Source: a virus
Taxonomy: Duplodnaviria > Heunggongvirae > Uroviricota > Caudoviricetes
Virus record (IMG/VR): IMGVR_UViG_3300010357_001332
Length of the DNA stretch: 64,000 bases
Reading direction: 5' to 3' (one strand)
Below, one piece after another: positions 3,507-62,763 of this stretch (its first letter is position 1; the number at the start of each line of letters is the position of its first letter). The notes under the pieces are model-generated. The model made no database searches. It was not told where the DNA came from and saw nothing but the letters and a program-made list of their open reading frames with translations. The translations under genes and the position numbers were made by a program.

Positions 3507-6500
3507 TTAATCTCCTAATCTATCGAATGATTCTTGAAGTTCTTTATCTAAAAGATGTGGGTAATCTATCCACTTGGTAAAATTTTCTCTAAATCTTTGT
3601 AATTGATCAGATCCTTCTTTATTTAAACATTTACCTTGATTATCCCAAACTTTCCCTTTAATAAGTTTGTCGTCTATACTTCCTTGTTTAATTCTTTGTT
3701 CATTTAATTCATATCCTACTATCTCTTGATTTGAATAAATAGGATATAATATTTGGTATAATTTATATGTATCTAATTCTTCAGAAGAAAGATTATAATC
3801 AGGTTCTTTAAAAGCTTTTCTGATCTTCTTCTCCAGATCTTCGTTTATAAACTCAAAATTCCTTAAAAAGATATTACTTATAGAATCGTTTTCTTGCGCA
3901 ATCCATTTAGATGCATATAATATATTATTATGTAAAAAGAAAGGAACATATCCTCTATATTTTATTTTTTCTTGCTGCATTCTAGCAGTTATTAGCATTT
4001 CTTGCAATTGAGCAGATTTAGATTCTTTGTCTTCTTCAGTAGAAGAAAACTGCTTTGCAAGTTTTTCTCTTTCTATTTTTTCCCATTCAGGAATATCAAT
4101 AATATCTGCAACAAATTCTACTTTATCAAATCTAGCTTTTTTATGTAACTTGGATATTTTAGATATTAATCGTCTAGTAGGATCTATTAAATCTACTGGA
4201 CAAGAACCAACTCTAATATCTCCAACATAAAAATCTTTATAACGTCTTATTTGAGAATCTAATTTATTGCCGAATTCTTCATCACATCCTTCAGTAGCTG
4301 GTGATAATAAACATACTTCTAAAGTAGGTGATAATAAAAATGCAAGATTTCTTCCTTTGCTTAATAATTCATCAGTTGGAAAGATTTGTCCTTCTTTTGT
4401 TAATATATTTTCTACTTTTACATTATAAATACCTTGTTCATTAAATCCTTTTAATTGCCCAAAACAAAAAGCAGTTACACCTAATCCTTTTATCTTAGAA
4501 CAAAAATTAGATTGTTTAATATCAGCTTGTTTACTAAAAAAGAATTCTTTTGCCCAACCTTCTAGTTCATTAGAGATTAATAAATCTGTAAATCCTTGAT
4601 ATTCTTTATTTTGTGTATACGGAACAAAACCTGTTTTTCCATATGCAAATAGTTTTCCTTGTATATATAGCTTTTTAAAATTATCAATAAGATCTTCAAC
4701 AGGTTTATTTTTAGATAGATTTTCTCCTATCTTATAAAAAAGTAAGGAAACAGGACCAGGAATTTCTTGTGCTTTTAAATTTTTATTCCAAGTTTCTTCT
4801 TCTACTGCATCCATATACTTAGAAGTAGATAACTCTATATTTGCTTCTTTCTGTCTAACTTGATCTGGATGTAATAATACTTCTTCTTGTATTACTTCTG
4901 CAGTTTTAGATTCGCTTATAAATTCATTATCTTGTGCAATATGCTCGATATCTAAATTAACTTGTTCTCTAGGTTTAGAGAGACCAAATTTATTTCTTAA
5001 TCCTTTAAAAGCTGAACCTAATGCTGACATCGGAGCACTTATACTACCAGCTGCAGGAGGTTGTGCATATATACCAATTCTTTCTTCTAATTCTTTTTGT
5101 TGTTTCTTCTTAATTAATTCTTCTTCTAGATCGAAACCCATTGATTGTAGTAGTGTTAATGCAGAAAGAGGACCTTTACCCTGTGCATAAACATTATTCA
5201 TAAAAGTTAAAAATGCTTGATCATCTCTAAGCATTAGTTTTTTATGCCAAGCTAATTTTGGTATAATTAAGCGCTCTTCTAATTCTTTTCCTTTTCTAGC
5301 TATTCTATATTGTCCGACAATTTCTCTTTTATCTCTTCTATACCAACCATTTCTTTTTGCCATTCCGCGTAGAAACTTATTCTGAATCCAACGAACTTCA
5401 AATAAATCTCTTTTAGCTTTATATCTAGCTAATTGTGTTTGTAATCCAACATTGGCAGAAGCATATGTAGCTTCTCCTGTCATAAATTGTTGACTTACAC
5501 CTAATGCTATCATTTTCTTTTTAGCAATTTCATCCCACTCTCTGTCTAATTTCATTACTTTATCTGCTACTGTAAGAAATTCTACATTTAGGGCATAATG
5601 ATAGATTAGAGCAAAGTTAGGATCAAAGGTAGCTTGTTGTAACATTTGAGCTAATGCCATCTGATGATCTGCACTTGGTATCCAACCTTTTTGTGGATCT
5701 CCTAATTTAAATAGCTTTAAAGGATAAATAAAATTATCAGCAATAGTAATCTGAGATTCTCGTAACTTATCCTCATACATGAGAAGCCTGAAAATGCGAT
5801 CTAAGATTGAAGTTCCACGTAAATCATACGGATTACTTCTTCTTGCTATATGCGTTATTTCGTCTGGATCTAATATTAAATTTTTACCAGATAATACTCG
5901 TTTAATGATTTCATGAGGTAATCTTTTCTTGAGTTCTTGGTCTTGGGGTTTAGTAGAATTTACTAGATGTTTTAATTCATCGTCAGGGATTAATTCTACT
6001 GAATATTCTTGATCTGCGAATGGGCTAGCAGATAATTCAACGAAATCAGGATTATGAATAATGATGTGTTTCCACATTCCTTTTTCATCATCCCAAGGTG
6101 TGTTAATAAATACTTCGCCTATCTTGAGATATTCAAGATCAATAGCAGGAAGCATAGAAAAGAATTGTGTTTGATCGAAGCAATCTTGTACATGTTGCTT
6201 AATAATTTTATCATCACAAACTACTTCTGCTTTAGAATACGGAAGCTCTGCATGCATGTCGAGAACAGCACCAACAACCTCATCATGATCATAAAACCAT
6301 CTACGCCATCTATTTTTTTGTTTAATAGATCTAGGTAGATAAATAGCAGTAGTAGTAATTTCTGGATCATAGAAACGTCTTGAGGAGTTTCTAAGAATAT
6401 TTAATCCGCCATTTGCTAATCCAGAGGATAGGCCTAATGTTGCTAAACTACCAAAATTAGTAGAATTATACGTAGCGGCAGTTTTCTCTCTAGCACCGGA

Positions 6501-49144: not shown

Positions 49145-49576
49145 ATGAAATTAAAAATAAATTTAGAAAAATTACCTCCTACATATGACTCACTTATTAT
49201 AGACAGATTAGAAAAGAAAAATCTACCTTCTTGTATGGGTGGAATGCTTCTTCCTATTTTAAATCAGATAGAAGAAATAGAAGACACAGATATTATAGCA
49301 CCTACTGAAAGTATACCAGAAATCAATCGAGCGAATGTAGATCTAACAGAAGTTTGTGCTAATTCTGACAAAGTCCTTACAGGAAATAGTATGACTGTTT
49401 CTGGTTTAAAACATATACTAGCATTTAAAGAATCTAAGGCAAATGCTTTTGTAGACCAATGTGAAAAATGCATTAATTGTACGTATATAGAAGTATGTAA
49501 TAATCTAACACGCAATACACTACAATCATTTGCAATAATGCAATCTTTATCAATTAAAGGAGTATCGAATGAATAA
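49145..49576 (+). CDS. Hypothetical protein with Cys cluster
   Basis: CEKCINC...C; ATG 49145 preferred. Confidence 0.5.
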   Translation: MKLKINLEKLPPTYDSLIIDRLEKKNLPSCMGGMLLPILNQIEEIEDTDIIAPTESIPEINRANVDLTEVCANSDKVLTGNSMTVSGLKHILAFKESKANAFVDQCEKCINCTYIEVCNNLTRNTLQSFAIMQSLSIKGVSNE

Positions 49577-50660
49577 ATTCTTTAGATTTATAGGTTTGGG
49601 TCAATGCGGTCTACGAATATCTCAAGAATTTGAAAAAATGGGATTTTATACGTCTATTATTAATTCTGACGAAATAGATGAAAGAGGATATGAGATAGAA
49701 TCCGATAGATTGCTTGTTTTAAAAGGAACAGGAACAGGTAAATCTTTAAAGATAGGAAAACAAATTATAGAAAATAATAAAAGTAAATTTGAATCCTTTA
49801 TCAGAAAGAATTGCAATAAGAATGGTGTTACAATCTTTATTGCAGGAGGTGGTGGAGGAACAGGTGGATCTTTTATTGCTCCTGCAGTAGAATATACAAA
49901 AAGTTTAGGGTATAAAGTAGGCGTAATTTATACTCTTCCACCTAAAATGCTAGGCATCGTAACAGCAAAAAATTCCTTGATTACTTTAAAAGAACTTTTA
50001 AAACTTGAAACAGATTTCTTTATGCTGGTAGATAATGAATTATTAATAGAAGAAGTAGGAAAAGATGATACTTGGTGGGGTAAGATAAATAGAATGATAT
50101 TATCTACTTTCTATTCATCTACTGAAATTATACGTGAAAATAAAACAGCTCAACAAGGTTTAGGTTCTATAGATAGAGGTGAGGTAATTAGAAGTTTAAC
50201 TTATGGAAAAGGTTGTACAGATATTAGAAGATACTATCTAACCACAGAAGATTGTGGAAAAAGTGAAGAGGAGCTAAGTACTTTACTTTTTCATCCTCAA
50301 CTTGTAGAAGGATATAATTATAAAGAATCCAAATGTTATTTGGTATCGATAGACGTACCACAATCTGGAAATTATAGCTTGATATCAAAGAAAATATTTG
50401 ATATTATAAAGCATCGCGTAGGTAATGCTATATCAATATTGGGTATGTTTACAGATCCACTTTTAAAAGATTCTGTTAAAGTAACAATTATAAATTCTGG
50501 ATTACAATTACCTAAAATACTCCAATCTAGAATAAAGAATCTAAGAAGAGATGAAAATGCTTTTCAACATAAACAAGAAAAGGAGGATCAAACTATTCAA
50601 GTTATTTCAGAATTAACATTTGATGAAGATCTCTCACTAGATAAAGACTTTCAACTATAA
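49569..50660 (+). CDS. Tubulin/FtsZ-superfamily GTPase (PhuZ/TubZ-like)
   Basis: IGLGQCG, INSD, GTGTGK, signature GGGGGTGGS, VDN. Confidence 0.85.
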   Translation: MNKFFRFIGLGQCGLRISQEFEKMGFYTSIINSDEIDERGYEIESDRLLVLKGTGTGKSLKIGKQIIENNKSKFESFIRKNCNKNGVTIFIAGGGGGTGGSFIAPAVEYTKSLGYKVGVIYTLPPKMLGIVTAKNSLITLKELLKLETDFFMLVDNELLIEEVGKDDTWWGKINRMILSTFYSSTEIIRENKTAQQGLGSIDRGEVIRSLTYGKGCTDIRRYYLTTEDCGKSEEELSTLLFHPQLVEGYNYKESKCYLVSIDVPQSGNYSLISKKIFDIIKHRVGNAISILGMFTDPLLKDSVKVTIINSGLQLPKILQSRIKNLRRDENAFQHKQEKEDQTIQVISELTFDEDLSLDKDFQL

Positions 50661-56959: not shown

Positions 56960-57931
56960 ATGAGCGTTTCCAAACAACGATTACAGGAAATAATGGAATT
57001 TTGCTTAGAACAAGGAGAAGAAAAAACTAGAGAATCTTTTAATATTACAGTATCTACATTGGAAAAGTATAAAAGATTATATAAAGAACAGGTAAGTGAT
57101 GATATAAATAAAAAGATTTATCTTGGACAGATTTTTGAAAGATTTAGCGAAGCAGAACTTAAATCTATAGCAGAAGGATCAAGGATTATACCAGGTGAAC
57201 ATTCATCTCCAAAATTAAATTTTGATGGTGAGAAAGTAACATTTGGTGCGATGGGTGATACACATATTGGAAGTGTCTATTTCAAAGAAGAATTACTAGA
57301 ACAAGCAATAGAGGAATGTGATAAGCAAAATTGTCAGTTTATTTGTCATACAGGCGATCTAACAGACGGAATGTCTAGAAGACCAGGTCATGTATACGAA
57401 CTCAAGGATATAGGATATCAAAGGCAGAAAGAAAGAGCTGTACGATGCTTTTCACAATGGAGAAAACACTGGTACTTCATAGATGGCAATCATGACCGTT
57501 GGTATGTCGAAAATAATAATTCTGGTGCAATTATAGCAAAAGATATTTGTAATGAATTAAATCACTTTGAACAAGGAGCCACTTTTCTAGGGCATGATGA
57601 AGGAATTATTACACTAGGTGATATTAAGATTATGTTATGGCATGGAATAGATTCTTCTAGCTATGCTACTTCTTATCGACTGCAAAAACTAGTTGAAGCT
57701 TTTTCTGGCGGTGAGAAACCTAATGTTTTATTGGCAGGGCATGTACATAAACAAGGATACTTTTTTGAAAGAAATATTCATTGTATTAGTACTGGAGCAA
57801 TATGTTTACAAAGCAGATGGATGCGAGGAAAGAGGCTGGCAAATCACAGCGGATTTTGGATCATTACGATGTGGATGAATGAAAAAGGAGTAAGTAAATT
57901 TCAACCAACTTGGTATCCATTTTACATGTAA
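56960..57931 (+). CDS. Calcineurin-like metallophosphoesterase with N-terminal HTH-like segment
   Basis: GDTHIG, GDLTDG, GNHD, WHG, GHVH. Confidence 0.85.
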   Translation: MSVSKQRLQEIMEFCLEQGEEKTRESFNITVSTLEKYKRLYKEQVSDDINKKIYLGQIFERFSEAELKSIAEGSRIIPGEHSSPKLNFDGEKVTFGAMGDTHIGSVYFKEELLEQAIEECDKQNCQFICHTGDLTDGMSRRPGHVYELKDIGYQRQKERAVRCFSQWRKHWYFIDGNHDRWYVENNNSGAIIAKDICNELNHFEQGATFLGHDEGIITLGDIKIMLWHGIDSSSYATSYRLQKLVEAFSGGEKPNVLLAGHVHKQGYFFERNIHCISTGAICLQSRWMRGKRLANHSGFWIITMWMNEKGVSKFQPTWYPFYM

Positions 57932-57941
57932 GTAATCTATA

Positions 57942-57977
57942 AAACAAAATGCAGTAGTTAACTACTGCATTTTGTTT
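57942..57977. terminator. Perfect 36-bp palindrome; likely bidirectional terminator at the convergent junction
   Basis: AAACAAAATGCAGTAGTTAACTACTGCATTTTGTTT; T-runs on both strands. Confidence 0.8.
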
Positions 57978-57981
57978 GTTT

Positions 57982-58066
57982 AGCATATCTTATCACAACT
58001 TGACGGATCTTATCTCAACCCAACCCAACGTAATAAATTGAAACTCATTATACTATACCTTATCTG
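57982..58066 (-). repeat. Pentamer array A (17 units; NN + degenerate GTT/GAT triplet)
   Basis: Minus strand: caGAT aaGGT atAGT atAAT gaGTT tcAAT ttATT acGTT ggGTT ggGTT gaGAT aaGAT ccGTC aaGTT gtGAT aaGAT atGCT. Confidence 0.65.
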
Positions 58067-58361
58067 ATATACAATTTTTTTCTAATAGAAAACTATTCTC
58101 GTTTATTTCTGACTCTTCTTGAAAAACAGGAATAGTAATAATCTTTTTCTTTCTTAAAGAAAGAAGATCCGAATCACTAATTTCAATAGTTTTAGAAACT
58201 ATTTTTGTAGAAAAGAAAAATCCTGGATATTTCATTCCATTTTCTGTTTCAAATACTTGAAGATAAACATTATCGTGATCTCTCCAGTAATATTCATCTT
58301 TATTGAGATTTAAATCTTTATAATCTTTTTTAACACTAAAACTAGCAGGAACTTTTTTCAT
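58053..58361 (-). CDS. Hypothetical protein between arrays A and B
   Basis: 102 aa, AAGGAG RBS at end of array B. Confidence 0.7.
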   Translation of the reverse strand: MKKVPASFSVKKDYKDLNLNKDEYYWRDHDNVYLQVFETENGMKYPGFFFSTKIVSKTIEISDSDLLSLRKKKIITIPVFQEESEINENSFLLEKNCISDKV

Positions 58362-58379
58362 TATTTTAACAATCTCCTT

Positions 58380-58499
58380 AACTTAATATAACTTAATATA
58401 ACTGAACGTAACCCAACGTAACTCAACTCAACTGAATTAAACATAACCTAACTCAACGTAACTCAACTGAATTAAACTGAATTAAACATAACCTAACTT
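58380..58499 (-). repeat. Pentamer array B (24 units; NN + GTT x19 / ATT x5)
   Basis: Plus strand AAY-NN x24 uninterrupted; begins in the stop codon of the RAMP gene. Confidence 0.95.
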
Positions 58500-59073
58500 A
58501 CTCTTCTATATACTCAATAGATTTAACATTAAATCTACCGTAGTATCCATTTTGACTTGGTCTGAATCTTAATAATCCTATAAATTTACCTGCTACATCT
58601 AAATGCCTTTCAAATACCTTTCCACCTTGGGTGGTAGCAATAGATTCATCAATTATAAAAAACTTTGCTTTTCCAGACCAAGATTCTATCTTTGGAAAAA
58701 TTCTAGGTACACGTGTTGTACCACCTCTTGTTCCATCTGCAGGAACAAGCAATCTTTCACCTTGAACATCCTCTTTCTTAATAGAAAGAACAATGGGATC
58801 TACCACCATAAGACCTGCTTCAAATTTCTTGGTCCAAGTCTTCTTACCTTCGCCTTCAATTCTTTCAGACAAATACTTTGCTGCATTTGTCAGACAGTTT
58901 TTTAGAGCCATTGGAGGAATAATTACATAACCTTCTTCATTGTAATGCATTCTTTCCTTCCAAGTTCTCTCTTCATAATCTGCATTCTTCTCTCCTTCTT
59001 TCTTTGGAACTTCATAATACTTTGAAAAACTTAAAGGACTTGCTCCTTCAATTTCAACTATTGCTGCTTTCAT
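58498..59073 (-). CDS. Stand-alone Cas7/RAMP-fold protein (Vipr-like candidate)
   Basis: N-terminal IVEIEGASPL strand, IIPPMALKNCLTNAA (cf. IPGSSLKG), C-terminal G-loop GKFIGLLRFRPSQNGYYGRFNV; flanked by arrays B and C. Confidence 0.75.
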   Translation of the reverse strand: MKAAIVEIEGASPLSFSKYYEVPKKEGEKNADYEERTWKERMHYNEEGYVIIPPMALKNCLTNAAKYLSERIEGEGKKTWTKKFEAGLMVVDPIVLSIKKEDVQGERLLVPADGTRGGTTRVPRIFPKIESWSGKAKFFIIDESIATTQGGKVFERHLDVAGKFIGLLRFRPSQNGYYGRFNVKSIEYIEE

Positions 59074-59105
59074 TTACTTTTACCTCATTTATTTTAAAAT
59101 ATTTT

Positions 59106-59190
59106 ACCTTACTATACCGAAATCCAACTCAACGTAACACAACCCAACACAACTTAACTCAACGAAACGCAACGCAACCAAACTTAATTA
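59106..59190 (-). repeat. Pentamer array C (17 units)
   Basis: Minus: taATT aaGTT tgGTT gcGTT gcGTT tcGTT gaGTT aaGTT gtGTT ggGTT gtGTT acGTT gaGTT ggATT tcGGT atAGT aaGGT. Confidence 0.92.
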
Positions 59191-59201
59191 GTTTATAAGT
59201 T

Positions 59202-59402
59202 CTAGTGCAAATACTTTACAGATTCTTTTTCTATTTTTGCTCTAACAATTTGACATTCTTCTATTTCTAAAGAATAATCATATTTAGAAAATAGAGAAGT
59301 AACATTAACATATATCCACCAAAAGAAATTTTGTATTCTTGTAGGATAGTATCCTTTATCTAACATATCTTTATAATATTGTAGTTTCTTTTTTATATTC
59401 AT
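59202..59402 (-). CDS. Small hypothetical protein between arrays C and D
   Basis: 66 aa. Confidence 0.6.
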   Translation of the reverse strand: MNIKKKLQYYKDMLDKGYYPTRIQNFFWWIYVNVTSLFSKYDYSLEIEECQIVRAKIEKESVKYLH

Positions 59403-59411
59403 ATAATTCTT

Positions 59412-59486
59412 ACCTTAACTGAACTCAACTCAACAAAACTCAACCAAACTCAACTCAACTAAACAGAACCGACTGCAACATATCAC
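59412..59486 (-). repeat. Pentamer array D (15 units)
   Basis: Minus: gtGAT atGTT gcAGT cgGTT ctGTT taGTT gaGTT gaGTT tgGTT gaGTT ttGTT gaGTT gaGTT caGTT aaGGT. Confidence 0.92.
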
Positions 59487-59487
59487 T

Positions 59488-60507
59488 TTATTTCTTTCTA
59501 GATAAAGAACTAGAAGAAATTTCTGGAAATTTAATCTCTTTCTTCTTTTCTTCTTTTCGTTTTTCTACTGCAATCGAAGGAAGAGAAAGATTTTGAATAC
59601 TATCTTCTTTTTTAATTTCTTGTCTAATTTTTTCTATTGTAACTTTTGGTATCTCCTTAAATTTTTTGGATAACTTTTCTACTTCTTTTTTATTTTGTTC
59701 CACTTCTATTTTTCTTAATTCAGTTTCTCTTTCTAAAGAAATATCTTCCCAATGTTGCATATCTTCAAATAATTCTTGGGGACGAATATATTCTATAAAT
59801 TCGTGTTTAATAGTTTTTTGATCGATATCTACTTGAATTAATGTAGCACCAATATCCACAGGGTTATCAGATCCCATAAATGCTGTTTCCCACTGCCAAC
59901 AGGGTGTATGAATAATTTTCACTCCATCATGCGCCTCATATATTCTATGAAGATGAGAAGCAACAATCATTCCTATTTTTGCAGTGTTAGTTTTATAATA
60001 TCTTTTAAAAGCAGCAGTAATTTCAGAAGATGGTGTTTTCCCTTGATGTCTGAAGTTAATACTTGGCATATTATATTTACTTAAGGATAAATTAAATTCC
60101 TTTTTATAATGATTTCCTTTTACATTATGTAATGTAATTAAATTTTGTGTAATTTGTCTATCTGCATCGAACCCCGTTCCTTTACCTGTATGATATCCTG
60201 AACCGCTGCATCCATAGATTATAGTATTTTTACCTACTAAAGGAGATAATAATTCTACAGCAGAGTTTACTTGATCCTCCATATCAGGAATACAGAGTGT
60301 AGTAGCATCTTTTCCACCAGGACCATCCACTATATCACCATTAAGAATTAGATAATCAGGATATTTATATTTTTGAATAAATTCTTCCCATTTGTTTATT
60401 GCCCATAATTGATAAGAATTTGTATGTTCATTAAAATACTTTCTAGGCGTTAGACCATAAATAGAACCCACATGAACATCTGCTAAAACTAGTAATTTAA
60501 TAATCAT
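59488..60507 (-). CDS. Calcineurin-like metallophosphoesterase with charged C-terminal tail
   Basis: ADVHVGS, NGDIVDG, GSGYH, RHQG, SHLH. Confidence 0.8.
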   Translation of the reverse strand: MIIKLLVLADVHVGSIYGLTPRKYFNEHTNSYQLWAINKWEEFIQKYKYPDYLILNGDIVDGPGGKDATTLCIPDMEDQVNSAVELLSPLVGKNTIIYGCSGSGYHTGKGTGFDADRQITQNLITLHNVKGNHYKKEFNLSLSKYNMPSINFRHQGKTPSSEITAAFKRYYKTNTAKIGMIVASHLHRIYEAHDGVKIIHTPCWQWETAFMGSDNPVDIGATLIQVDIDQKTIKHEFIEYIRPQELFEDMQHWEDISLERETELRKIEVEQNKKEVEKLSKKFKEIPKVTIEKIRQEIKKEDSIQNLSLPSIAVEKRKEEKKKEIKFPEISSSSLSRKK

Positions 60508-60537
60508 ATATACTTAAACCTCTTTTTAATATAATTT

Positions 60538-60622
60538 ACCTTAACATAATAAAACGCAGTATAACCCAACAAAACTCAACAAATCTGAACGTAACCCAAC
60601 GAAACGAAATATACCTTAATAA
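60538..60622 (-). repeat. Pentamer array E (17 units)
   Basis: Minus: ttATT aaGGT atATT tcGTT tcGTT ggGTT acGTT caGAT ttGTT gaGTT ttGTT ggGTT atACT gcGTT ttATT atGTT aaGGT. Confidence 0.9.
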
Positions 60623-60631
60623 ATATTCTTT

Positions 60632-60850
60632 TCATAATAATCTTCTCCTACATCTATTTAAAACTTTTATAATATTTTGTAAAGATAATTGTTTTAATAA
60701 TTGATATAAAGCTTTAGATACATAAATTCTATTTTTATAATACAAACCGTCTATATTTATAGCATATTCTATATTGTTAAAAGAAGAATTTATTAATATA
60801 AAAGTGTTTTCTTTATCTAGATGCATTATTTTATCATGTATTATAATCAC
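60632..60850 (-). CDS. Hypothetical protein, paralog family member 1
   Basis: YVSKALYQLLKQLSLQNIIKVLNRC. Confidence 0.6.
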   Translation of the reverse strand: MIIIHDKIMHLDKENTFILINSSFNNIEYAINIDGLYYKNRIYVSKALYQLLKQLSLQNIIKVLNRCRRRLL

Positions 60851-61173
60851 ATATTGCCTCTTTTCTTCATCAGTTTTGAAGCTTCGTCTTTCATATGTTC
60901 TAATATCATTTTAATTATAGAATCACATTGTGATTGTTTGACTCTATGAATACAAATAGAAGTATCAAAAGATTTTAATCTTCTTTGTTCAAATTCAAAT
61001 CCAGATATTTCTTTACATCTTTTTAGAACCTTTAAAATACTTTCGTTTGATAAATTATTACAGATATCATATAGTTCAACGGAAAGATATACACAAGGAT
61101 ATATACTACTCTGATTTTCATAGTATTCAGAATGTTGTAATAGTAGGCTACTAGTAATACTAAAAGGTTTCAT
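60847..61173 (-). CDS. Hypothetical protein, paralog family member 2
   Basis: YLSVELYDICNNLSNESILKVLKRC. Confidence 0.65.
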   Translation of the reverse strand: MKPFSITSSLLLQHSEYYENQSSIYPCVYLSVELYDICNNLSNESILKVLKRCKEISGFEFEQRRLKSFDTSICIHRVKQSQCDSIIKMILEHMKDEASKLMKKRGNM

Positions 61174-61196
61174 TAGTCATCTTTGTTGTAATACAA

Positions 61197-61730
61197 TTAT
61201 TTGCTTTTCCATCTTTCAAATGTTCTTGTCCAAACTTCATCCGCAATTTTTTGTAATCTACTTTTTTCTTTTCTTTTCTCTGCTTCTTTTTGTAAATCTT
61301 TTAAAATTTCTTCGTCTTCATGCTTTATCATTTCTCTTGTTACTATATCAAATTGTCTTTCAGCAATATCTTTCATAGATATATTAGGCATAGAATTAAC
61401 AGTAAATGTAGGAGGATATACTCTTTGTGCACATATACCTGTTGCACCTGTAGAACTCATAGTCCCAATAGGAGTACCTAGCTTTCTTCGGTCATAATCA
61501 ATTTTATGTATTTCTGTACATTTCTTTAAAAGATTTGTAATACCTTCTTTATTTAATTTTTTACATATTTTACTTAATTCAGGTGATGTAAGTATAATTG
61601 TATGATCATATCTATCACTATCTATATAATACTCTGAATTCTTTAATAATGTATCAGATATAACAGAAAAGTTATTTCTATCTGTAAGTGTAATATTAGT
61701 TAGATGAACACTAGGTAAATGATATGCCAT
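61197..61730 (-). CDS. Hypothetical protein, paralog family member 3, with capsid-like segment
   Basis: LTSPELSKICKKLNKEGITNLLKKC; later RVYPPTFTVNSMPNI...REMIKHED. Confidence 0.65.
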   Translation of the reverse strand: MAYHLPSVHLTNITLTDRNNFSVISDTLLKNSEYYIDSDRYDHTIILTSPELSKICKKLNKEGITNLLKKCTEIHKIDYDRRKLGTPIGTMSSTGATGICAQRVYPPTFTVNSMPNISMKDIAERQFDIVTREMIKHEDEEILKDLQKEAEKRKEKSRLQKIADEVWTRTFERWKSK

Positions 61731-61735
61731 TTTAA

Positions 61736-62206
61736 TTATACCTTTAACTTCTTAATTTTCTTTTTTGAAACTTTGTTTGATTTAAAAGTATCCCAGAATC
61801 CTTTAGAATTATTAACACTAGCTGATAACTGTGTATAAAAACCTGTTTGACCTGTTTGATTAGTAGAAACAGTATTTTGTGGAGTATACGAATTTGTAGA
61901 AACCCATACAGGTCCTATCATAGTTGTACCAGAAGCAGATACATTTGCAGGCTTGGTACCTGGAAGAGAAGTCCAGGTACGATTATCAAATATTCTAGAT
62001 CCAAGAATACTAGGACTTACCCTGATACACTTTCTTGGCAAGGTCTGCATTCCTTCCTTTGATAAGTGACTACATATATCATATAATTCTTTTGAAAGAA
62101 AGATAACACCATTATCAAAAATTGATGTAGCATCTATATTAATACAATATTCTTGTTGATATAAATGTTCTGAAATTTCAAGTTTTATTTTAAATGTTAT
62201 TTCCAT
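61736..62206 (-). CDS. Hypothetical protein, paralog family member 4
   Basis: FLSKELYDICSHLSKEGMQTLPRKC. Confidence 0.65.
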   Translation of the reverse strand: MEITFKIKLEISEHLYQQEYCINIDATSIFDNGVIFLSKELYDICSHLSKEGMQTLPRKCIRVSPSILGSRIFDNRTWTSLPGTKPANVSASGTTMIGPVWVSTNSYTPQNTVSTNQTGQTGFYTQLSASVNNSKGFWDTFKSNKVSKKKIKKLKV

Positions 62207-62763
62207 AATAGTTCAAGAATATAATAAATTAAATCTACCTGATCATCCGTGAATTTCCATCTTTTATTTATTCTGCTATCAGCCCATTCAAAAGGATTAT
62301 TTCGTTTCTCCTCTGACATAGCACACCAATCACAACACATTTCTGCTATATCTAATTCAGTCATATTAGTAGAATCTACTATTTTAGAAGGATTCTTATC
62401 ACGATCTTCTATATTTATAGTAGAAGAAGAATCAAAGTATTCCGGATGATGACTATTGGTATGAACGTGGTGTTCAGTAGCATCATTCATTTCCTTTCTT
62501 TGTGCTTTTGAAACTGCACATTCCTTTCCTTCATCTTTATCTTTATATTCCCAAGATATAAGAAGATACGGATCTAGCTCAGGTTCTTTATATTTACTTA
62601 AATCGTGATCTTCACCTCTTTTTGTCATTTCTTTAAAAGTAATAGGATCTATTTCAAATAACTTATTACAGTATTTTTGAACTAATTCTCTATGCAGATC
62701 TGTCCTTTTCTGAAAATATTTTAATAATTCTGATTTATCATTTGGAAACATTATTTTCCTCAT
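62197..62763 (-). CDS. DUF5662-like HD-superfamily protein
   Basis: HRELV, HDLSKY, HH..NSHHPEYF, MTELDIAEMCCDWCAMS. Confidence 0.75.
   Translation of the reverse strand: MRKIMFPNDKSELLKYFQKRTDLHRELVQKYCNKLFEIDPITFKEMTKRGEDHDLSKYKEPELDPYLLISWEYKDKDEGKECAVSKAQRKEMNDATEHHVHTNSHHPEYFDSSSTINIEDRDKNPSKIVDSTNMTELDIAEMCCDWCAMSEEKRNNPFEWADSRINKRWKFTDDQVDLIYYILELLWK

Follow-up and report, generated by a model that had tools for sequence, protein, structure and literature searches.

VIPR, a CRISPR-related system described in 2026, is built around Vipr, a stand-alone ancestral RAMP protein that coats a guide RNA (vrRNA) composed of GGY/NN repeats. It is through the NN bases that the RNA pairs with DNA, each third base being skipped, and the skipped bases lie at wobble positions; one studied guide covers the active-site block of a competitor's recombinase, and escape then requires amino-acid changes. 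The published cases involve satellites or prophages (bioRxiv 10.64898/2026.04.26.720920, 10.64898/2026.04.26.720927 and 10.64898/2026.10.15.759431). Here we describe a locus on a stretch of 64,000 nucleotides from a Caudoviricetes virus (IMG/VR record IMGVR_UViG_3300010357_001332), the whole of which is called the window below. Judged by sequence comparison, the locus is a VIPR system with five guide-RNA genes (arrays A to E), borne by a phage on a variable island. With a probability of about 0.7, the guide spelled by array E is aimed, as a VIPR guide, at deoxyribosyltransferase-like genes of the family PF05014 carried by other phages.

The locus resembles the type II VIPR of Escherichia phage SUSP1 (Vipr, vap1 and vrRNAs; PDB 36pp) in having a stand-alone Cas7-like protein of ~190-200 amino acids, guide genes of 9-16 five-base units (three fixed and two variable bases) that are intergenic around vipr, and an apparent skip of one base in three, framed on the wobble position, over conserved or active-site blocks of competitors' genes. 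It differs in its fixed triplet (G-U-U here, G-G-Y there), in arrays that alternate singly with the protein genes of one operon and have a short AA-GG end, and in its apparent targets, which are genes of sister phages here and of a satellite in SUSP1; no vap1 homologue was identified at the locus. By direct sequence the closest named relative is the Pseudomonas prophage VIPR (P. fulva clade in the preprint; here vB_Pae_LESphi2, OQ594955.1), whose protein is 27.5% identical to ours over 85% (E 2e-6). There, too, arrays stand immediately before vipr, each closing with an AAGG unit, but the triplet is GGC, a GC-rich hairpin tail follows each array, and the phage is temperate, with the system beside cI/cro. 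The VIPR locus of this clinical P. aeruginosa prophage is unannotated in its record (OQ594955.1, positions 4891-6329), where the Vipr homologue ('hypothetical') follows three NN-GGC arrays that have hairpin tails, beside cI/cro and a sigma factor. Among class 1 CRISPR systems, the Cas7 backbone (Csm3/Cmr4 and type VII Cas7) supplies the best structural matches, and both Cas7 backbone and Vipr form oligomers on a guide RNA and use thumbs to interrupt the duplex at regular intervals. Unlike a CRISPR system, the locus has no CRISPR array, Cas5, Cas6, Cas10, Cas14 or spacer-repeat layout in or beside it, and its period is 5 in the guide against 3 in the target, where CRISPR effectors have 6 against 6.

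Two features of the locus are needed first:

58498 to 59073, minus strand: vipr, encoding a 191-amino-acid stand-alone Cas7-like RAMP protein, between arrays B and C.
60538 to 60622, minus strand: array E, a putative vrRNA gene of 14 NN-GTT-type pentamers flanked by two AA-GGT units.

The AlphaFold2 model of the 191-amino-acid protein (predicted local distance difference test, 92.6) has a Cas7-like RAMP fold, and its best Foldseek matches are type VII Cas7 and type III Csm3 (E 3e-8 to 1e-5); no Pfam family was matched by the protein. We assign the locus to VIPR because the profile of this protein family, searched against the PDB, matches the solved 'SUSP1 Vipr protein' (36pp) at the top (E 1.1e-7; second match, E 0.02), and because the single sequence is related by tblastn to a Pseudomonas prophage protein adjoining canonical NN-GGC arrays. 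Relatives of the protein form more than 1000 cluster representatives at 50% identity; 171 homologues are on viral contigs, and in most of these period-5 arrays adjoin the gene on the same strand. Across the 66 relatives with scorable arrays the fixed triplet was GGC (49), GAC (5), GTC (4), GTT (3) or CGC (3).

Set against the published description, the locus has a stand-alone RAMP related to a characterised Vipr, intergenic five-base units of three fixed and two hypervariable bases on the vipr strand, and, for guides A, C and E, natural matches at the level of target families that are aligned to wobble positions with a 1-nt skip, none of them a perfect target. It departs in the triplet, which is mostly GTT instead of GGY, with GGT confined to the terminal AA-GGT unit. 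The preprint permits 'a related consensus' (NNNGG, YNNNG or NNNNG), and G-U-U is not among these. When the G-loop is aligned to SUSP1 Vipr, the G1/G2-reading residues D177-W178 correspond to R-F, with four residues inserted, and no alignment column distinguished GGC-type from GTT-type relatives at the 70% level.

Between 57.9 and 61.2 kb of the window all genes are on the minus strand, and each intergenic gap there is occupied by a pentamer tract that reads, on that strand, two variable bases and then G-T-T. Counted with a tolerance of one mismatch, the five-unit GTT pattern GTTNNGTTNNGTTNNGTTNNGTT has 39 occurrences in the window, where shuffles predict 0.01; every one of them is on the minus strand within arrays B-E. 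By this comparison the pentamer periodicity is far above the chance level. A period-5 scan of the 64-kb window found no further array of NN-GTT type outside the island.

Array E parses in a single register: tt-ATT aa-GGT, then at-ATT tc-GTT tc-GTT gg-GTT ac-GTT ca-GAT tt-GTT ga-GTT tt-GTT gg-GTT at-ACT gc-GTT tt-ATT at-GTT, then aa-GGT. The fixed triplet is GTT in 10 of its 14 units and ATT, GAT or ACT in the other four. A sequence-only reading of the window had taken the variable pairs (at tc tc gg ac ca tt ga tt gg at gc tt at) as a guide that pairs with every two bases in three, and had decoded it, with one free base after each pair, into a motif resembling nucleoside 2-deoxyribosyltransferase (NDT). 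The minus-strand parse returns exactly this series, and the decode, [IM]SSGTHFDLGMAF[IM], is correct by translation table 11. Guide E is identical across every contig and run that covers the array. The skip-every-third-base code proposed in that reading survives as well, but it is not new: it is the published 1-nt skip rule of VIPR, wobble logic included. The skip code, the wobble logic and the targeting of active sites had all been published already, and the central proposal is thus a rediscovery.

We scored guide E as matches among its 28 read bases (14 NN pairs), skipping one base in three; the preprint's threshold for a target is at least 80% of read bases matching. A seed modelled on the classical SGTxFELGxA motif gave 25 matches in viral contigs, roughly the chance level, and three of these resemble classical NDT genes by motif and length (not by Pfam), at 17/28 only. 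The central eight units gave 13 matches in viral contigs, all chance-like, and at least 120 in metagenome contigs. Among the 120 metagenome matches listed, 11 fall in one protein family, in frame, at 21-25/28; the other 109 average 18.9. These 11 are proteins of 110-150 amino acids that share the block S-[QT]-G-T-H-F-D-L-G-M-A-F; their contigs have 28-55% G+C. Three of the 11 pass the 80% threshold, L166 (25/28, with 11 perfect units in a row), L147 (24/28) and L165 (23/28); the L147 peptide, KSTGTHFDLGMAFM, is close to the example peptide given in the sequence-only reading. In frame, guide E spells S-S-G-T-H-F-D-L-G-M-A-F-[IM], each skipped base falling at a wobble position, and so covers the best-conserved stretch of this large-phage family. 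Natural gapped matches of the kind that the sequence-only reading had called for therefore exist.

PF05014 is the top Pfam family in all nine members examined (E 4e-11 to 1.5e-4), one of which scores above the gathering threshold and the others 0.3-6 bits below it. Most of 120 homologues carry precomputed PF05014 assignments, and the source records of several call them nucleoside 2-deoxyribosyltransferase. The subfamily block reads K-S-Q-G-T-H-F-D-[LM]-G-[VM]-A-F-A, with S, G, F, D, G and F invariant, and the guide E footprint spans the invariant S72, G74, F77, D78, G80 and F83 (numbering of the subfamily alignment). We take this block to be the position of the catalytic acid in the PF05014 fold (Glu in classical enzymes, Asp here). 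At the protein level 12 of the 14 decoded residues fit the block; shuffled unit orders fit at 6.1 positions on average and at no more than 8. The earlier claim of a match at "about seven positions" was accordingly an understatement, and the likeness to the NDT family stands for this phage PF05014 subfamily, not for the classical SGTxFELGxA motif.

Proteins of the subfamily, collected by protein similarity alone, are encoded on 32 viral contigs, many of them of 160-675 kb, and in 32 of 32 of these loci the best gapped match of guide E falls on the block. Over the 32 loci and the sister phage described below, none of which was selected through guide E DNA, a 1-base skip scored 19.7 against 17.0 for shuffled guides, and skips of 0, 2 and 3 bases scored 16.9; only the 1-base skip beats shuffled guides on these loci. 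The window itself has no such gene, as had been stated: tblastn found nothing PF05014-like (best E 0.1), and at the weak matches of NDT proteins near 47.7 kb of the window no open frame is present.

Three further arrays and one neighbouring gene bear on the apparent targets of the guides:

57982 to 58061, minus strand: array A, a putative vrRNA gene whose guide decodes E-S-F-T-G-G-E-K-P-N-V.
59105 to 59200, minus strand: array C, a putative vrRNA gene whose central units decode A-S-[DE]-[KN]-V-G-V-T.
59403 to 59487, minus strand: array D, a putative vrRNA gene with the pairs at gc cg ct ta ga ga tg ga tt ga ga ca.
56960 to 57931, plus strand: the phage's own metallophosphoesterase gene (323 amino acids), convergent with the VIPR operon and adjoining array A.

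The central seed of guide A has 35 viral matches, at least 19 of which are in frame in one family of metallophosphoesterases (320-340 amino acids) at 22-24/26, where the footprint carries the motif E-S-F-T-G-G-E-K-P-N-V. These proteins are 38-51% identical homologues of the phage's own phosphoesterase (56960-57931). At the corresponding site of the own copy (57695-57733; EAFSGGEKPNVLL) the motif is E-A-F-S-G-G-E-K-P-N-V, which matches at 21/26 (81%) and differs by two amino acids within the guide A footprint. Among 105 homologues in which the block could be located both of these positions vary and the EAFS combination occurs in four, and the closest phosphoesterase relatives carry guide A's exact version. 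The two differences look like self-avoidance. With the exception of guide A on the own phosphoesterase (21/26), no guide has a self-target in the window beyond the level of shuffles.

Guide C resolves in a similar manner. Of the 18 viral matches to its seed, 16 fall in frame on A-S-D-N-V-G-V-T within (W)xAASDNVGVTGY, a motif of FN3/Ig-like type in large structural proteins of phages; the best match in an AT-rich contig scores 22/30 (L289). A seed scan of guide D gave one match, at the chance level. Guide D was also compared with the C-terminal block of the PF05014 subfamily (ARLLDEWE), and this candidate was rejected at 7/13, within the range of shuffles. Guides A, C and E are all in the coding-strand sense, and would thus pair with the template DNA strand, not with mRNA, which fits DNA targeting.

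A sister phage (L343) was found by fetching the closest phosphoesterase homologue, i.e., by way of guide A and not guide E. It is 98% identical to the carrier phage in the terminase, 95% in DUF5662, 89% in the 156-amino-acid gene and 79-94% in neighbouring small genes, and 62.5% in the phosphoesterase. The sister has no VIPR island. Between its phosphoesterase and the conserved 177/164-amino-acid gene, where the carrier has the island, there are three genes: r118, r65 and a PF05014 gene of 120 amino acids from the same subfamily as the guide E matches (stretches compared: L343:10001-13463 and window 56960-62763). Within the sister's 21-kb locus the top match of guide E is the PF05014 motif (21/28) and that of guide A is the phosphoesterase motif (21/26). 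The island site is thus a hotspot of variation, and the gene at its edge, the phosphoesterase, has diverged sharply. Because the locus was reached through guide A, the presence of the subfamily there is independent support for the target class of guide E. All sister-lineage NDT alleles retrieved are identical at the motif, at 21/28, and a match of 75% in every retrieved allele means that this sister is not a perfect target.

Several observations weigh against a PF05014 target. The exact 10-unit core of guide E has no match in the viral contigs and none in the metagenome contigs, and no perfect or near-perfect target was present in the contigs searched. Under a random-sequence model a 25/28 match is expected about once in ~600 Gb, a 24/28 match was also seen in a 58-codon frame that is not a gene, and, as the metagenome seed scan gave at least 120 matches, the family's share is that among the matches listed. 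The sister-phage allele lies under the preprint's 80%. Guides A-D have no match on the NDT-bearing contigs (~33 kb examined), and no guide in 85 related VIPR loci is aimed at the guide E motif. Finally, the best match, L166, is on a marine-sediment phage contig (with T4-like topoisomerase II, NAD ligase and homing endonucleases), while the carrier was detected in at least five other studies, in runs from wastewater, sludge, digesters and biofilm; the two were not seen in the same runs, and this difference of habitat makes L166 not the real opponent.

One alternative is that array E is a real VIPR guide whose true target is unsampled and unrelated, the likeness to PF05014 being a coincidence. 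The hundreds of gigabases searched, a 25/28 expectation of order one, a decode that was read by eye, the non-gene match, the exact 10-unit match in an unrelated comM gene (below), the foreign habitat of the best match and the fact that the sister allele's 21/28 equals the highest shuffled score on that locus all speak for this explanation. We nevertheless consider it unlikely. Coincidence gives no reason for 11 diverged members, on contigs of widely differing base composition, to match in frame at the block with the invariant residues, nor for a fit of 12 residues where shuffles reach at most 8; nor does it account for the sister phage, which was reached by a separate route, having a gene of this subfamily at the allelic position, or for guides A and C likewise resolving to in-frame conserved motifs. 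With 11 diverged in-frame block matches, an outlying protein-level fit and independent genomic context, the target class is supported at the family level, at the probability of about 0.7 stated at the outset. The proposal that the guide is aimed at such a gene in another phage or element stands to that extent, and does not reach down to the actual target.

The block S-G-T-H-F-D-L-G-I-A-L of comM/yifB, which encodes a Mg-chelatase-like competence helicase, has nine residues in common with the PF05014 block, and guide E has an exact gapped match of 20 bases there. If this were the intended site, the guide would target a host gene, at the N-terminal block [KS]-G-T-H-F-D-L-G-I-A-L. In 596 Gb of species-representative genomes the 10-unit core indeed has a single exact match, in comM of an Arcobacteraceae metagenome-assembled genome (L111/L112), in frame and at 23/28 overall; the locus has 23% GC, Arcobacteraceae are common in wastewater, and three more comM genes are among the metagenome seed matches listed (20-21/28). 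We find a host target of this kind very improbable all the same. About one exact match is expected by chance, and only one of 184 Arcobacteraceae genomes matches within three mismatches over 12 units. The gene is far commoner than the phage family, yet gives 3 matches against 11 among those listed, with a best score of 23 against 25, and the flanking units suit the PF05014 block (A-F-[IM]) better than comM (A-L-G). A BLAST comparison of 20 kb of the window with the 184 Arcobacteraceae genomes returned short AT-rich noise only and no host link. The comM match of this genome was accordingly judged to be at the chance level, and the case shows that decoded motifs need not be unique.

Under the preferred reading, that guide E is aimed at phage PF05014 genes, the mechanism would by analogy follow that of SUSP1. 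The arrays would be part of the operon transcript, which would be cut or trimmed at their AA-GG units. Vipr protomers would then line the vrRNA, one per pentamer, each gripping G-U-U and exposing the two variable bases, and the 14 dinucleotides of guide E would pair with double-stranded DNA reading NN-x-NN-x. The bound filament would invade the double-stranded DNA and block transcription. Guide E is likely to serve in silencing the PF05014 gene of competing relatives during co-infection, because synonymous changes could not break its match.

The layout of the sister phage also permits a bolder proposal, namely that the VIPR island is an RNA-guided selfish allele whose guides aim at the sister phages' alternative allele of its own site. 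Guide E would then target the PF05014 gene at the island's place and guide A the sister's phosphoesterase, and the rival allele would be silenced by the island during co-infection. If the 339-amino-acid island protein (below) were a nuclease, the rival allele would instead be broken, and repair with the carrier genome as template would bring in the island, a variant that resembles homing endonucleases. We regard this proposal as improbable.

The remaining features of the island and its edge are:

57946 to 57973, unstranded: an A-tract, hairpin and T-tract, read from the sequence, between the phosphoesterase gene and array A.
58053 to 58361, minus strand: a gene of 102 amino acids, between arrays B and A.
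58362 to 58500, minus strand: array B, ~24 units with an internal duplication.
59202 to 59402, minus strand: a gene of 66 amino acids, between arrays D and C, with no homologue in the sister phage.
59488 to 60507, minus strand: a gene of 339 amino acids, between arrays E and D, whose product weakly resembles calcineurin-like phosphoesterases at its N-terminus.
60632 to 61173, minus strand: two small genes (72 and 108 amino acids) upstream of array E, where the variable island has its inner edge.

The 339-amino-acid protein matches Pfam PF00149 at E 8.5e-4, below the cut-off, and is possibly the product of an accessory (vap-like) gene; homologues adjoin vipr in only 3 of 85 related loci. The genes of 102 and 66 amino acids were found beside vipr in none of the 85. 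The two small genes upstream of array E are weak paralogues of the nearby 177/156-amino-acid genes. The element at 57946-57973 is probably a two-way terminator that closes the VIPR operon, although it is absent from the output of a consensus promoter/terminator scan, which was at shuffle level overall. An Rfam scan of 57-62 kb returned nothing exceeding noise, and blastn of the locus against GenBank phages found no similarity.

An AA-GG unit closes arrays B-E in the window and is followed by the ribosome-binding region of a gene. Beyond this short conserved end, (AA-GTT)n AA-GG, neither a long tail nor a pseudoknot was recognised, pseudoknots not having been specifically sought. In four relatives with GTT, GGT or GTC units (L113, L116, L075 and L029) the vrRNA ends in (AA-GTT or AA-GTC)n AA-GG and a T-run, after which ~25-30 A-rich bases precede the next array.

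This arrangement raises the alternative that the arrays are cis-acting operators and not guides, the oligomerising RAMP protein coating (NN-GUU)n leaders just upstream of ribosome-binding sites and so tuning translation of the island genes. TRAP, which binds GAG/UAG repeats spaced by 2-3 bases, offers a parallel. Every array does lie in an intergenic gap on the transcribed strand and ends between a few and ~40 bases before the next start codon, and the terminal AAGG of arrays B and D overlaps a Shine-Dalgarno-like sequence. Operators of this kind would give no account, however, of three arrays that spell in-frame conserved motifs of other phages' genes, or of the free-standing arrays of relatives, which have T-run ends and no gene downstream, and the protein family includes an experimentally characterised DNA-targeting Vipr. 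That the arrays are operators instead of guides is therefore hardly credible, and the two roles could coexist.

Strains of the carrier differ in their arrays; none of the runs that contain the locus is an RNA run. Array D (59404-59474) is not alignable in other runs, and a block of array C recurs in its extra units in strain L347. In contigs from two other runs array B lacks exactly 45 nt (nine units, 58429-58475), a loss that amounts to removal of the internal duplication. Guides thus turn over while the period and the fixed triplet persist.

The window is part of a large AT-rich phage (28.8% G+C; phage ~238 kb) and contains genes for portal, large terminase, PolA-type polymerase, DnaB and a UvsX-like protein. 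It also has a frame of 363 amino acids (49569-50660) that is syntenic with, and probably the counterpart of, a gene of the sister phage (L343:2802-3893) encoding a tubulin-family protein (PF00091) between primase and helicase; a tubulin-family gene would fit a nucleus- or spindle-forming type of phage.

The locus is set apart from the described systems by its GUU triplet, by guides interleaved with protein genes, and by guides apparently aimed at sister-phage alleles of the island site and its neighbour. The 1-base skip rule appears to hold in a VIPR branch with a fixed GUU, and if so the grip of the protein on its RNA can change without a change of code. With five natural guides, three of them with decodable motifs, and one self-copy at 81%, the locus is a cheap set for binding and repression assays that could define mismatch tolerance and self-avoidance. 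Guides directed at sister-phage genes at and beside the island site suggest allele-against-allele competition within one phage lineage.

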